DNA of 57,324 bases from a virus (taxonomy: Duplodnaviria > Heunggongvirae > Uroviricota > Caudoviricetes): the IMG/VR virus record IMGVR_UViG_2778261526_000005; one strand, given 5' to 3'. This document shows positions 1,740-48,221 of this stretch, piece after piece (the first letter of the stretch is position 1; the number at the start of each line of letters is the position of its first letter). The position numbers were made by a program, and so were the translations under genes. The notes under the pieces were generated by a model. That model did no database searches. It worked only from the letters and a program-made list of their open reading frames with translations, and was not told where the DNA came from.

Positions 1740-2609
<870 letters not shown>

Positions 2610-2666
2610 GTCTTTAAGTGATAAGCATAAACCGCAGCACGATCTTGCATACGACGTGCTACGGTT

Positions 2667-31704: not shown

Positions 31705-32309
31705 GCGTTAGTTTCTCCACAGTCACGACACGCCACGGCGCCCGGAGCTGCACACTCGCGGGCGTCATTACTTTCTGAAATGCAAAAGATTTTGTAGACC
31801 AGTGCTGCATGCTCCTGCAGCTTCGAAATTGAGAGATACAGCTCGTCGTTAATTGCTGTCTTCTCATGCGGTTCCACCACACCGTCTTCGATTGCCGAAC
31901 GAATCTGTCTGGAATAACTGCCAATCTGTTCAATGACTTCCAGCAGGCGCTGGTTAATATCGGCGTTGTCCACATCCTCGACGTCAGGAAGAGACACAAA
32001 GACGCCATTTGCAGACTGCGCCACAGCGTCAGCAATGAAGTGAGTTCCACCAGCACGTTGCAAAATCATTGCCCATCCCAGCGGGAAAATCTGATCGCCA
32101 TCGGCACGAAGGCGGTTAAATAATGCGTTTTCTGTTACATCCAGCCAGTCAGCTGCTTCAGCGTAACCACCCGGCAACGCTGCGATAGTTTTTCTGACAG
32201 CTTTCACGTACCACTCAGGCTGTTTTTCTACTTTCCAGTGATGCTTACCCACGGTTAGCCTCATCGTTCTGTGGTTTCTGTTAATCGATTTATCCATTAG
32301 ATTTTTCAT
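31701..32309 (-). CDS. Putative CII-like/YdaT-like early regulator (start uncertain; track ORF extends to 32366)
   Basis: Position immediately downstream of cro. Confidence 0.3.
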
Positions 32310-32490
32310 AAAGCTCAGGTTTAAATGGCAACCGTCCGCAAGTTCTATATGCAGCTTCTGCTGCACGTCCTTTTGGAATTAACTGGCCCGGACGGTTTCG
32401 CCACTGATAAACGGCTTCAGTTGTTATGCCGAAAAAAGCAGCAACTTTCTCAATACTGCCGAAGTAGCTTTCGATATCGTCAGTTGTCAT
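32290..32490 (-). CDS. cro: Cro-like HTH regulator
   Basis: 66 aa, divergent from the repressor gene; AVYQWR HTH-like segment. Confidence 0.7.
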   Translation of the reverse strand: MTTDDIESYFGSIEKVAAFFGITTEAVYQWRNRPGQLIPKGRAAEAAYRTCGRLPFKPELYEKSNG

Positions 32491-32587: not shown

Positions 32588-33214
32588 ATGGAAACGGTTG
32601 GTCAGCGTATAAAAGCTCTGAGAAGAGTTACCGGAACGTCCCAGAAAGAATTGGGTAAATTTTGTGGAGTAAGCGACGTTGCTGTGGGGTACTGGGAGAA
32701 AGACATCAATACCCCTGGTGGGGAGGCACTTTCGAAATTAGCGAAGTTCTTCAATACGTCAATAGATTACATTCTTTATGGTGCTGAGTTTGAAGGCAAA
32801 CTCGTCACAAACATGCGCAGAGTTCCTGTAATATCGTGGGTTCAGGCTGGGCAGTTTACTGAGTGCAGGGCAGCAGAAGTGTTTAGTGAAGTGGACAAGT
32901 GGGTAGATACATCATTAAAGATTGGTGATAACTCATTTGCATTAGAGGTTAAAGGTGACTCCATGACTAACCCTAATGGCCTCCCAACAATACCAGAAGG
33001 CGCAACAGTGATTGTAGATCCAGATGCAGAACCTCGTCATGGAAAAATAGTCATCGCTCGACTTGATGGAACAAACGAAGCTACAGTAAAAAAATTAGTC
33101 ATCGATGGCCCTCAAAAGTTTTTAGTGCCATTAAATCCTCGGTATCCCAACATCCCTATCAATGGTAATTGCCTTATCATTGGTGTAGTCAAAGGAGTTC
33201 AATACGAACTCTAA
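32588..33214 (+). CDS. cI: CI-type repressor (HTH plus S24 LexA-like peptidase)
   Basis: N-terminal HTH (QKELGKFCGVSDVAVGYWEKD), C-terminal GDSM serine and Lys of S24 peptidases. Confidence 0.85.
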   Translation: METVGQRIKALRRVTGTSQKELGKFCGVSDVAVGYWEKDINTPGGEALSKLAKFFNTSIDYILYGAEFEGKLVTNMRRVPVISWVQAGQFTECRAAEVFSEVDKWVDTSLKIGDNSFALEVKGDSMTNPNGLPTIPEGATVIVDPDAEPRHGKIVIARLDGTNEATVKKLVIDGPQKFLVPLNPRYPNIPINGNCLIIGVVKGVQYEL

Positions 33215-33378
33215 GACCTCTCTTCTCTAACTAAGGCACCGAACTAAGAAAAGTTTGGTGTTTTCTCTTGCCATAATAACTAAGTTAAATTAGATTTTAT
33301 ATCAAAGATAACGAACAGGCAGGACGCCCACGAAGTAGCCGCCTGGGGCATATGAAGTCCAGGATGATTCGTTGAGTC

Positions 33379-33696
33379 ATGTTGTGCCACCAGGCACTCA
33401 TGTTAAAGCAGGTGTATGAAATGAAAGTCCAGATTTTAAACAATAACTGTGAAGTCGTTTGGTCATACGACATAGCCGCCCCTGTAGATCAGAGCGGCGA
33501 TAGCTGGACCAATGGGAAACATCAGATTATGGCTGGAGTTGTGTTCTCTTTACGCCGTGCTTTGGAACAGGCTGAAGTATTTCCATCAGACCCTGAATGG
33601 AAATGGCCTTTTTCTATTTGTCCAAATTCGGAGAGCACATTTCAGAAAATTGGTCAGAAAGTCGCACTCGAAGAGCATCAGCCAACTGTTTCCTGA
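33379..33696 (+). CDS. Hypothetical protein downstream of cI
   Basis: ORF only. Confidence 0.3.
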   Translation: MLCHQALMLKQVYEMKVQILNNNCEVVWSYDIAAPVDQSGDSWTNGKHQIMAGVVFSLRRALEQAEVFPSDPEWKWPFSICPNSESTFQKIGQKVALEEHQPTVS

Positions 33697-33859
33697 TTTT
33701 TTCAGGTAACTCGTCGGCATCGCAGAAACAACAACGCTCGATCATGTTGAAAGCCGATTCGTAGAACTGTTTCTGCTGAGTGTCGCTGAGACAGGAAAAG
33801 AGCGACGTTACGATGATTTTATTAATTGCATTATCAAGTTCTTTTTCATCAAAAGTCAT
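33614..33859 (-). CDS. Hypothetical protein, convergent and overlapping the previous ORF
   Basis: ORF only. Confidence 0.3.
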   Translation of the reverse strand: MTFDEKELDNAINKIIVTSLFSCLSDTQQKQFYESAFNMIERCCFCDADELPEKIRKQLADALRVRLSDQFSEMCSPNLDK

Positions 33860-34372
33860 TTGATTTTCCTTTTATGTATACGGGCTTAAAAGGATACCAC
33901 CGAGCCTGAAGTGGTGAAAAGACAGGCACATAACAGCTAAGTATTTTCAACCAAAGAGAATCCTTAGCGTTGTGGTGAATGCGGCTCAGCGCACGCGGGT
34001 TAAGGTTGAGGCTGACAGTCGACCTTCTGTGGATACCCACCCGCCTGGTGTGCAACCTTCGCCAGGCACCGGGAGGCACCCTGCACCACAACTTTATGCT
34101 GTGTGTAGTCTTGGCGGTACCAGTTTGTACCCTTGCTTCCGGCTGGTACCATCCTTTTTACAAAACAGAGAAGAGCATCATCGGACGACAGGCTCATAAC
34201 CCAATCCATCCGGGCGGCTGCCACCGCAGGTGTTCTTCTCTGTTTTGTGGAGAAACTAACCGCCCCTACGGGGGCATTTATGGAAATGTAATTGACTCAA
34301 TAATCGCCGGACGGTGAGGGCTTCCTTTTACCCGAATTCAGCGCGGTGCAGCGCATATACGTGGAGAACAAA

Positions 34373-34909
34373 ATGTCATTTATTAAAACTTTTTCCGGGA
34401 AGCATTTTTATTATGACAGGATAAATAAAGACGACATCGTTATTAACGATATCGCGGTTTCCCTTTCAAATATCTGTCGCTTTGCAGGACATCTTTCACA
34501 CTTCTACAGCGTCGCCCAACATGCGGTGCTTTGCAGCCAGCTGGTACCGCAGGAATTTGCTTTTGAAGCGTTAATGCATGATGCAACAGAAGCGTATTGC
34601 CAGGACATCCCGGCTCCACTGAAACGCCTTCTTCCTGACTATAAACGGATGGAAGAAAAAATAGACGCCGTAATCCGTGAGAAATACGGGTTACCCCCGG
34701 TTATGAGTACACCCGTGAAATATGCCGATCTCATCATGCTGGCAACCGAACGCCGCGATCTCGGGCTTGATGATGGCTCTTTCTGGCCTGTGCTGGAAGG
34801 TATCCCGGCAACAGAGATGTTCAACGTGATTCCACTGGCTCCAGGCCATGCCTACGGGATGTTTATGGAACGCTTTAACGAATTATCGGAGTTACGCAAA
34901 TGCGCATGA
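34373..34909 (+). CDS. HD-domain phosphohydrolase (YfbR-like)
   Basis: HD motif in ALMHDATEAY; GGAG RBS before MSFIK. Confidence 0.7.
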   Translation: MSFIKTFSGKHFYYDRINKDDIVINDIAVSLSNICRFAGHLSHFYSVAQHAVLCSQLVPQEFAFEALMHDATEAYCQDIPAPLKRLLPDYKRMEEKIDAVIREKYGLPPVMSTPVKYADLIMLATERRDLGLDDGSFWPVLEGIPATEMFNVIPLAPGHAYGMFMERFNELSELRKCA

Positions 34910-38353: not shown

Positions 38354-39039
38354 TGGGAAGCGAAGATCTGTTCAAAAAAAGAAAGGCTCGGCGTAATAAT
38401 GAATTCAAACGAGTTAGTAAAGCACGAGCTCAAATGAAGAAAATTCTTATCGTCTGTGAGGGAGAGAAGACTGAGCCCGCATATTTTACAGATTTTATAA
38501 AACATTGCCGTATAAGCACGGCAAGCATAGTTGAGATTTCTGGAGAGTGCGGCTCAAGCCCTATGAATGTGGTATCTTGGGCAAAAGAAAAATATAATAC
38601 GGAAAAAAAAAGGAGCGACCCTTATGATAAGGTTTATTGTGTCTTTGATAGAGACGCTCACCCTAACTATGATGAAGCTCTTAGCAGGATTAATTCCTTA
38701 AATCCAAAAGGGATTTTTGTTGCTATAACTTCCATACCATGTTTCGAGTACTGGCTGATACTACATTTTGGATACACCCGAAAATCATTTTCACCTCAGA
38801 AAGGCAAAAGTGAAGGCGCACAAATGCTAGCTGAGTTAAAAAAATACATGCCAGATTATGAGAAAAAGGCATCAGGTGTATTTAATAAATTGCAAGATCG
38901 GCTCGATACGGCATTAATCAATGCTAAAAGAGTCGAAGATGCCGCCAAAAAAGACGGTTCGATAAATCCTTCAACTAAAGTTGGCGCTTTGATTACAGAT
39001 CTAATTAACATTCGTGATGACTTTGAAAATGAGAAGTAA
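38338..39039 (+). CDS. RloB-like (TOPRIM-like) protein, AbiLii-like
   Basis: ILIVCEGEKTEPAYF matches the RloB motif as recalled; overlaps the ATPase gene. Confidence 0.6.
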   Translation: MGEILMGSEDLFKKRKARRNNEFKRVSKARAQMKKILIVCEGEKTEPAYFTDFIKHCRISTASIVEISGECGSSPMNVVSWAKEKYNTEKKRSDPYDKVYCVFDRDAHPNYDEALSRINSLNPKGIFVAITSIPCFEYWLILHFGYTRKSFSPQKGKSEGAQMLAELKKYMPDYEKKASGVFNKLQDRLDTALINAKRVEDAAKKDGSINPSTKVGALITDLINIRDDFENEK

Positions 39040-39165
39040 AAATAACATGTCATGATGTAGCGACGGCAGCATGTTTAAGTTCAAATGGCAAAGTGTACGC
39101 GAAGTATACGCGGCTCAAAAACAATAGAAAAAACGTATATTTTACAAAAGATTATATAAATTTTG

Positions 39166-39195
39166 ACGCGGGTTCAACTCCCGCCAGTTCCACCA
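39166..39195 (+). other. tmRNA (ssrA) 3'-end copy, about 30 nt: att core of P4-like element
   Basis: gacgcgggttcaactcccgccagttccacca matches the ssrA 3' end (T-arm, acceptor, CCA) with one mismatch; upstream is not ssrA-like. Confidence 0.7.
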
Positions 39196-39230
39196 AATAA
39201 TGATCCGGATACGTCCGGTGAAGTACAGAA

Positions 39231-39264
39231 AGCCCGCATGGCACAAGCCCTGCGGGCTTTTTTG
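39231..39264 (+). terminator. Terminator-like hairpin after ssrA fragment
   Basis: agcccgca...tgcgggct followed by tttttt. Confidence 0.4.
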
Positions 39265-47862: not shown

Positions 47863-48221
47863 TGATGCCTGAACGCATTAATCCCCATTTTTCTGGCTTG
47901 CATCCTGCAGTCATTTCCAGGTATAGTTTTTCCGCTGCCGCAAAATCGGCAGCCGGAATTGGCGTTCCGCGAAACTCAATGGCGACACCAGACGCGCCAA
48001 GCGTCTTTTTTTTCGTCGAAGCTCTGGCACACCCATTTTCCAGGCTGTGGTGTTTATGCGTACACCGTGGTTCTTTCGAGATAATGGCAGTCCGGGCGGG
48101 GCAGCCTTCGGGCTGGCCGGTATCCATTGAGGCCGGTTACGCCAACCCCGTTCGGGCTGCCACCAGTGAAATTGGCGTTTCCGGTGGTAGCAATAACCGC
48201 TACTCAATGGAGGCTGCCATC

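Follow-up and report, generated by a model that had tools for sequence, protein, structure and literature searches.

Small RNAs (sRNAs) of the STnc100/PasD type are the closest described relatives of the element considered here. In enteropathogenic Escherichia coli (EPEC), PasD1 and PasD2 are abundant, Hfq-dependent sRNAs that are stabilised by Hfq and have been confirmed by Northern blotting (PMC8550237). PasD is related to STnc100 (bioRxiv 10.64898/2026.05.13.724894), and PasD2 belongs to the most abundant CsrA-bound RNA pair in EPEC (bioRxiv 10.64898/2026.08.12.744399). The present analysis concerns positions 33860-34345 of a window of 57,324 nucleotides, by which the whole stretch of DNA analysed is meant (Caudoviricetes; IMG/VR record IMGVR_UViG_2778261526_000005). 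The window carries a lambdoid prophage, and the region in question is the non-coding leader of its early-left (integrase-side) operon, governed by a repressor-controlled promoter. This leader probably carries two conserved RNA elements, a terminated sRNA of the STnc100/PasD type (Module A) and, abutting it, a long hairpin with a tRNA-like arm (Module B).

An earlier note on this DNA had proposed that the region holds a cis-acting antitermination RNA or a small RNA. The second half of this proposal fits the left part of the region, which ends in a terminator, is related to STnc100/PasD, and has a K-12 homologue with mapped 3' ends and Hfq chimeras; the antitermination half is not supported for this region. 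Beyond what the note had anticipated, the region proved to be a mosaic of separately mobile modules, and its 15-nt inverted repeat closes a conserved RNA whose loop is initiator-tRNA-like.

Module A and its K-12 homologue

A permissive Rfam scan, a search that the note had recommended, returned STnc100 (RF02076) at 33947-34162 (+) with 29.9 bits (E = 1.5e-4) as the only meaningful match in the region; it thus gave a sub-threshold hit over Module A and nothing for Module B. Close relatives in which the P5 hairpin (below) is intact score 45.2, 40.6, 39.5, 35.1, and 33.4 bits against STnc100. Module A (33969-34159) is probably a divergent STnc100/PasD-type sRNA, a sub-threshold member of the family that appears to form a separate subfamily.

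The structured domain of STnc100/PasD type (33969-34092, +) is marked by the Rfam match, covariation, and a pseudoknot. It is preceded by a 5' hairpin, GCUAAG...CUUAGC (33936-33968), at the place of which ST64B has UAAGAG...CUCUUA. The closing helix P1 pairs 33969-33977 with 34084-34092 and the first hairpin, P2, occupies 33981-33996; both covary. Across 33 diverse sequences, 92.7% of the cells in these two helices are paired, compared with 37-49% in slid controls, and 70 cells are changed on both sides, compared with 27 in shuffles, none of 500 of which reached the observed number. Five pairs of the closing helix have changed on both sides, as have three pairs of the first hairpin, which is 99.4% paired. 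The P5 hairpin (34069-34083, CCGGG-AGGCA-CCCGG) completes the domain. Its CCGGG/CCCGG stem is invariant in the family; the search pattern forces part of this invariance, but the stem is also upper-case in the Rfam consensus. In the window, a private G34082T substitution breaks one pair of P5, so that the 3' strand reads CCCUG, alone among 33 sequences, and the common allele is intact. A full-text literature search for the P5 sequence found no paper.

The domain also contains an H-type pseudoknot that is absent from the Rfam STnc100 structure line. In nearly every member, the loop of the last variable hairpin forms pairs with the segment that follows the first hairpin; in the window, 34002-34008 pairs with 34053-34059, in the loop of the hairpin 34044-34050/34060-34066. 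Because MAFFT lost the pseudoknot register, helices were parsed in each sequence separately, with shuffle and non-cognate controls. The pairings differ from member to member (CCAGUC/GGCUGG, AAGGUUG/CAACCUU, UGGUUAU/AUAACCA, AGACUGACAAA/UUUGUCAGUCU), the two helices of the pseudoknot average 14.1 bp compared with 6.8 +/- 0.9 in shuffles, and cognate duplexes beat non-cognate ones (p = 1.8e-5). G-U pairs and the terminator downstream place Module A on the + strand.

Between the domain and the terminator lies a single-stranded linker (34093-34112, UUUAUGCUGUGUGUAGUCUU), a putative seed. Its sequence UUGCUGUGUGUAGUCUU is kept in the window, SfV, ST64B, phiES15, LLS, and e14, where four unrelated terminators follow it, and conservation ahead of such unlike terminators is the signature of a seed. 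The intrinsic terminator of the window (34113-34159, +) consists of the stem GGCGGUACCAG...CUGGUACC and a U5 tract, and it includes the 8-bp ggtaccag/ctggtacc pair of the earlier note (34116-34123/34143-34150). In 21 of 31 diverse family members, a terminator follows the domain at a distance of 15-50 nt; in a few, its place is taken by a ribosome-binding site and ATG.

The K-12 prophage e14 contains a copy of window positions 33891-34273 that is 89.8% identical and is annotated as the protein gene ymfH. Term-seq of MG1655 placed three 3' ends in this homologue (PMC7815308, supplementary file 1). The end at 1201195(-) coincides with the final U of the predicted U-tract (window 34159), the end at 1201257(-) falls within the linker (window 34096), and the end at 1201423(-) maps to window 33929, 14 nt past the hairpin ACCACCGAGCCUGAAGUGGU (33896-33915). 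The latter hairpin and its 14-nt extension (33896-33929, +) thus end where a strong K-12 e14 3' end lies, and the stem at 33896 was also seen as a terminator-like site on the - strand. Position 33929 is possibly a processing site that produces an sRNA 5' end at ~33930. In RIL-seq data, 'ymfH' occurs in 81-117 Hfq chimeras with three to four partners, always as the second RNA, and its sRNA score of 0.113 exceeds the cutoff of 0.1 used by the authors and lies just above that of dicF (PMC8175672, Table S1). Transcripts of the K-12 homologue are therefore terminated and sRNA-like in vivo.

In the mechanism proposed here, transcripts that stop at the U-tract (34159) would yield an sRNA of ~230 nt, if its 5' end is the cut at ~33930. 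Going by its architecture and by the data on its relatives, this sRNA would most likely bind Hfq and pair with targets through the linker.

A search pattern built from the two conserved ends of the domain retrieved more than 120 viral loci with 93 distinct cores. In genomes, the helix checks were passed by matches from Enterobacterales and by two very short contigs labelled otherwise; pattern matches outside Enterobacterales were discarded, as they fail the helix checks and fit chance expectation. Several other arrangements of such domains were observed. Phage cdtI (L003, 2870-2995, +) has a third domain variant, GUUGUGGUAAUCCGCG...CCCCACCACAAC, in the place of Module A, which keeps the closing helix and the AAU junction, has no CCGGGAGGCACCC hairpin, and is undetected by Rfam. 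Phage P1 (L004, AF234172) carries unannotated structures at 1996-2630 (+) in the ban operon, antisense to the annotated plp and upl, namely partial 5' copies of an STnc100-like domain (1996-2027 and 2224-2254) and a full domain just before tciA (2496-2630). A Superficieibacter electus prophage (L178, 6250-7110, -) has three tandem STnc100-type genes, every one of them under its own TTGACA promoter and closed by a terminator, immediately ahead of holin, endolysin, and Rz, and the Pantoea plasmid pAPP145_2 (L170/L179/L191) has seven STnc100-type copies in tandem.

Module B and its tRNA-like arm

Module B (34155-34258, +) is a long hairpin with a three-way top. Its 20-bp stem (34160-34179/34229-34248) closes the three-way junction and has the 15-nt inverted repeat as its core. 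The arms of this repeat are acaaaacagagaaga (34160-34174) and tcttctctgttttgt (34234-34248); the note had placed the first correctly and the second one position too far right, at 34235-34249. The pair lengthens to 25-nt arms (34160-34184/34224-34248) with 84% complementarity. Within the top are a lower arm stem (34181-34185/34209-34213), the initiator-tRNA-like hairpin (34190-34202), and a variable right arm (34214-34217/34224-34227), and the module ends in a 3' tail, GGAGAAA. In 20 diverse sequences, 93.1% of the cells in the helices are paired, compared with 36-53% in slid controls; in 11 pairs, 39 cells have changed on both sides, compared with 12.2 in shuffles, and no shuffle of 500 did as well. 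Helices of both modules therefore covary, as the note's test of structural conservation in homologous prophages had called for. The segment 34105-34345 has a fold z of -3.6, with an equally good fold in 1 of 200 shuffles; because of this value and the covariation across relatives, the repeats are more than chance. A covariance model of Module B (R2) scores 111.1 bits on the + strand and 38.9 on the - strand, and this asymmetry, together with G-U pairs, assigns the module to the + strand.

No Rfam family matched Module B at gathering or permissive thresholds. Module B is a structured RNA motif without an earlier description, and its function is putative. The U-tract abuts the long stem in 132 of 134 distinct Module B loci, and the domain upstream is STnc100-like in 27%, the GUGGUAAU variant in another 27%, and of other kinds in the rest. 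The genes that follow differ (yfdP, yfdR, recT-like), and a gene for a partner protein is not adjacent. The 3' tail reads UGUGGAGAAAC in the window (34251-34258, +) and is similar to UGUGGUGAAU, with which the STnc100-like domain begins; the hairpin of P1 and that of an environmental contig (L027) are continued directly by a type-2 STnc100-like domain. Together, these two observations suggest an ancestral repeated unit in which B was followed by A.

The best-conserved part of Module B is its left arm, (G)AC-GGG-CUCAUAA-CCC-AAUCC, and a motif search with this arm also retrieved phage tRNA genes. In the common allele, GGG-CUCAUAA-CCC is identical to the top of the anticodon stem and the loop of E. 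coli tRNA-fMet, and identity to the anticodon arm of K-12 metY (tRNA-fMet) extends over 14 nt; the window reads AGG-CUCAUAA-CCC and shares 12 nt. A census of 105 unique sequences, which were fetched through the 3' strand of the stem only and include four unrelated chance matches, found GGGCTCATAACCC in 71, GGGCTCATTCCCC in 12, and GGGCTCATTACCC in five; CAU is lost in only a few real loci. The P1 ban operon has two Module B-like hairpins (2149-2255 and 2429-2507), likewise unannotated, with GGG-UUCAUAU-CCC and GGG-GUCAUAU-CCC, and the corresponding sequence of L027 is GGG-ACUCAUAA-CCC. Across lambdoid phages, P1, and L027, U33, CAU, A37, and the G-C pairs are constant and all surrounding stems differ, which is the pattern of an anticodon loop. 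The likeness is confined to a 7-nt loop with U33, CAU, and A37, closed by three G-C pairs and conserved while the flanking helices covary: the 12-14 nt of metY identity do not extend to acceptor, D, or T arms, ARAGORN finds no tRNA in the window, and the Rfam tRNA model has no match in the region. The linker, the promoter-proximal hairpin loop, and downstream start regions were inspected by eye as pairing partners of the loop, and none of these pairings covaries.

A polymerase that reads through the terminator would transcribe Module B as a hairpin of ~100 nt with a three-way top. Its arm could then serve as a functional mimic that is recognised by a reader of the initiator anticodon arm. Because both CAU and the G-C pairs are conserved, the most likely reader would be the P site of the 30S subunit with initiation factor 3 (IF3); other possible readers are methionyl-tRNA synthetase (MetRS) and an anticodon nuclease. 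RNase III could plausibly cut the long stem as well, which would part the sRNA from the mRNA downstream. As a more far-reaching and distinctly tentative proposal, Module B, which is also carried by P1 and further Enterobacterales phages, might, alone or with the adjacent STnc100-like pseudoknot domain, be an initiator anticodon-arm mimic that engages the 30S P site and IF3, MetRS, or a VapC-type nuclease and in this way tunes early genes or blunts defence; ymfH would be this RNA, and its reported triggering of a retron toxin (below) an RNA effect.

A simpler explanation is that Module B is nothing but an RNase III processing or stability hairpin, in which the tRNA-like loop is a coincidence or the relic of a tRNA gene. 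Long duplexes of this kind are RNase III sites in the early transcripts of lambda and T7, the stem of Module B forms a nearly perfect duplex of 20-25 bp, and a 3-bp stem would need G-C pairs anyway. Yet it is the apical arm and not the long stem that is most conserved, U33, CAU, and A37 have been kept in three lineages in which all stems have changed, and a relic is difficult to reconcile with the lack of tRNA-fMet similarity outside the anticodon arm and of any tRNA found by ARAGORN. This explanation is accordingly regarded as unlikely, though it fares best among the alternatives considered.

Operon context, mosaic make-up, and competing explanations

The note had located the region at the head of the leftward early operon, and a promoter with operator repeats does precede it. 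The pL-like promoter of the early-left operon (33268-33296, +; TTGCCA-17-TAGATT) lies outside the region and is overlapped by AACTAAG operator repeats, which recur in the cI/cro intergenic region; the block of promoter and operators is also found ahead of the leader in many viral contigs. A LexA-type repressor gene occupies 32588-33214 (+) and cro 32290-32490 (-). The order on the + strand is pL, a ymfJ-like ORF (open reading frame), the region, yfdR (34373-34909), yfdS, two small ORFs, one of which sits in the position of an excisionase gene, and the integrase gene. This layout is common to SfV, ST64B, cdtI, phiES15, and e14. Because of the gene order and of the position of the promoter, ~650 nt upstream of the start of the region, the region is part of the early-left transcript. 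It is GC-rich, as the note had put it, only relative to its flanks (0.50-0.55 compared with 0.39-0.44). All three repeats that had been listed were found in 33860-34345 and belong to conserved + strand RNA structures; the third is a small hairpin, GCCCC-UACG-GGGGC (34262-34275), at the place of which relatives have different hairpins.

BLAST comparison with phages splits the region into separately mobile pieces. Positions 33953-34117 recur between different flanking sequences in phiES15 and in a Salmonella phage, and a 32-nt core of them occurs in P1; positions 34111-34273 stand alone in cdtI, mEp460, and many Stx2 phages; and similarity to SfV and cdtI stops at 34273. A spacer (34262-34372, +) precedes yfdR, which starts at 34373, and is homologous to the yfdQ-yfdR intergenic region of the K-12 prophage CPS-53. 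Positions 34262-34345 match this spacer (L132, 4874-4957) at 91.7%, which makes the window a variant with yfdP-yfdQ deleted; the match to CPS-53 is limited to the spacer, and neither Module A nor Module B is present there. No second copy of the region was found elsewhere in the window. Among 5426 complete E. coli genomes, Module A is present in 1844 and Module B in 2768 (~51%), and just one complete genome matches the window without a difference. Six substitutions (33954, 34082, 34124, 34151, 34181, and 34190) are private to the window when it is set against the allele common to ECCHD184 and phage SKA5, and five of them are G:C to A:T transitions.

Some further features of the window were observed. 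The ORFs 33614-33859 (-, ymfI-like) and 33421-33696 (+, ymfJ-like) overlap on opposite strands, each is annotated in some records, and neither has a match in Pfam or NCBIfam. Matches to c4-a1b1, isrK (76.7 bits), and C4 antisense RNA (84.6 bits) at 47921-48167 (+) mark a P1/P7-type antirepressor control region ~11 kb past the integrase gene; in SfV, ST64B, and cdtI, these RNAs sit in the rightward operon instead. At 38862-39263 (+), a sub-threshold tmRNA-like match (30.2 bits; gathering score 47) is followed by an IsrM-like fragment, perhaps left over at an integration site of the ssrA type; ARAGORN finds no tmRNA in the window.

Several points weigh against reading the region as an STnc100/PasD-type sRNA joined to a tRNA-like module. 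The 29.9 bits of the Rfam match compare with a gathering score of 47 for STnc100, and part of the conservation is imposed by the patterns through which many family sequences were retrieved. Close relatives dominate the alignments, with effective sequence numbers of 1.3-1.8 for the models. About one third of the members have no terminator and lie in 5' untranslated regions (P1, L124, L016), so that the domain is not only an sRNA body. With up to three mismatches allowed, no complement of the linker occurs elsewhere in the window, and no target was found. Folded by itself, Module A has an ordinary minimum free energy (MFE; z = -1.3); for this pseudoknotted fold, a single-sequence MFE is uninformative. 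In the tRNA-like loop, position 38 varies, and the G-C pairs of the 3-bp stem might be kept for stability alone. Finally, four of the six private substitutions weaken conserved helices (P5, the base of the terminator, the arm stem, and the tRNA-like stem, which has AGG for GGG), and the window copy of the modules may on this account be impaired.

The region has also been considered as a cis-acting processive antitermination RNA like put of HK022, which would alter the polymerase that transcribed it and so permit terminators of the early-left operon to be read through as far as xis and int. These phages have no recognisable N gene, the terminator stands inside an operon whose distal genes need expression, and Module B is what these leaders have in common; for LLS, which carries Module B, put-type antitermination has been suggested by its authors for lack of N (PMC12315714). 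Against this, HK022 putL, which was located and read, gave no BLAST match to the region and has no motif in common with it, and the covariance models built here do not match HK022. Rfam holds no put model, so that the absence of an Rfam match is uninformative either way. No second copy of Module B, or of the promoter-proximal element described below, was found downstream of cro, where a putR-like site of the rightward operon would be expected. Module B lies after the terminator and not before it, and the homologous terminator works in K-12. Moreover, relatives of the Module A domain also occur as genes with their own promoter and terminator ahead of lysis genes; because such genes sit in tandem just upstream of lysis and holin genes, self-antitermination would be lethal. 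This reading is therefore considered improbable.

Should these N-less phages rely on an RNA antiterminator, a better placed candidate lies outside the region. A promoter-proximal element of two hairpins (33306-33378, +), ~62 nt long and closed by RCGAAC/GAUUCGY, scores 95.4 bits with its own model (R1). It is present as a single copy per prophage in the window, SfV, ST64B, F1055, sal3, and e14, and was not found in cdtI, phiES15, LLS, or HK022. The stem of its second hairpin covaries, and the element sits 10-20 nt past the early-left promoters of at least five immunity types; it is a candidate put-like antiterminator. An apparent likeness of this element to putL (ACGAAC...CAGGAUGA) was dropped, as covariation makes CCAGG a strand of a stem and not a put-type hairpin.

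It is similarly improbable that Module A and its terminator form a riboswitch or a protein-controlled attenuator that sets transcription into yfdR-xis-int. The domain is highly conserved and pseudoknotted, has invariant junction nucleotides, and is followed by a terminator or a ribosome-binding site as riboswitch aptamers are, and in EPEC no RNA is bound with CsrA more often than PasD2 (bioRxiv 10.64898/2026.08.12.744399). On the other hand, no Rfam riboswitch class matches, a conserved linker of 20 nt separates the domain from the terminator, reading of the sequence showed no way for the 3' strand of P1 to pair alternatively with the terminator, and the domain recurs in gene contexts that are unrelated and share no downstream gene.

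That the region encodes a small protein, either YmfH-like or the product of an ORF at 33979-34317, can be given very little weight. The note's statement that no convincing ORF is present needs qualification, since + strand ORFs of 112 and 75 amino acids exist; the evidence from codons, frameshifts, and protein families nevertheless speaks against coding. The 112-aa ORF (33979-34317) is open in the window, the Prokaryotic Genome Annotation Pipeline (PGAP) lists a frameshifted pseudogene at 33972-34291, and the corresponding K-12 e14 gene is annotated as ymfH (b1142; L253, 5070-5381, -). A clone of ymfH set off the retron-Sen2 toxin RcaT in a preprint screen (10.1101/2020.06.22.160242), and ymfH is also a member of the YmfT iModulon. 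Substitutions in comparisons with ymfH are spread evenly over the three codon positions (12/12/11, 10/12/11, and 16/20/18), all homologues are frameshifted relative to ymfH, with single-base indels in the window, SfV, ST64B, and cdtI, and no ORF of the region matches Pfam or NCBIfam. What is conserved instead are the RNA helices, in which changes compensate each other. On these grounds a coding role was rejected, and the region 33860-34345 is non-coding; the trigger of the retron toxin may be the ymfH RNA rather than a protein.

Most remote of all is an action of the repeats as DNA (protein-binding sites or a cruciform) or as a retron-like msr/msd: the arms are long and perfect, and overexpression of K-12 ymfH triggers a retron toxin, but the G-U pairs, which become A-C mismatches on the other strand, and the asymmetry of 111 to 39 bits point to RNA, and the retron that the note had itself considered and dismissed is rejected here too, as neither the ORF list nor the PGAP annotation has a reverse transcriptase gene in or near the operon.

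Relation to known systems

Through this analysis, a stretch that public records list as a hypothetical protein or a pseudogene, b1142 ymfH included, is reassigned to structured RNA. STnc100 and PasD emerge as the visible part of a much larger family of pseudoknotted RNAs, with subfamilies in early operons and in P1 that lie below the Rfam threshold. Module B adds a second, undescribed RNA motif, the best-conserved feature of which is an initiator-tRNA anticodon loop; if the mimicry is functional, temperate phages would have in it a novel means of acting on translation initiation or on tRNA-directed defence. With copies in K-12 e14 and in P1, the element lends itself to direct testing in existing strains. 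The search for the early antitermination mechanism of N-less lambdoid phages is also narrowed.

With STnc100, PasD1, and PasD2, Module A shares the closing helix GGUG/CACC with its AAU junction, GCG in the loop of the first hairpin, CACCGGGAGGCACCCGGCACC as an invariant element (with one P5 pair broken in the window copy), an intrinsic terminator at the 3' end, and a location in Enterobacterales prophages, and the Hfq dependence of PasD has its counterpart in the Hfq chimeras of the K-12 homologue. It differs from STnc100 in P2, which is GCGGC...GCGC and not CCCCC...GGGG, in an extra helix, and in its linkage to Module B. Type-1 members of STnc100/PasD are found in the late region near Q-like, StxB, NanS, and holin genes, whereas Module A lies between cI/pL and yfdR-xis-int.

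Mimics of tRNA anticodon arms are known from leaders, as in the E. coli thrS operator, which mimics tRNA-Thr, and viral tRNA-like structures are known as well. Like the thrS type, Module B is a leader hairpin that reproduces an anticodon loop, and its conservation follows the rules of tRNA loops, with U33, the anticodon, and a purine at 37. It differs in that it has no acceptor or T arm, CCA end, or adjacent gene for a partner protein, and in P1 and L027 it precedes an STnc100-like domain and not a ribosome-binding site. A retron msr/msd resembles the locus in that a structured RNA is followed by a long hairpin in both, with the difference that the present locus lies inside a phage operon leader and has no reverse transcriptase.

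The likeness to HK022 putL and putR is that of structured RNAs in early transcripts of N-less lambdoid phages, in operons in which transcription has to pass terminators. In HK022, put consists of two stem-loops (~70 nt) right after the promoter and exists in L and R copies (PMC9378689). Such RNAs suppress terminators downstream in cis by way of the zinc-binding domain in the beta' subunit of RNA polymerase. The region analysed here, in contrast, is single, lies 650 nt downstream, and has a working terminator of its own, and its domain is also found in stand-alone terminated genes.

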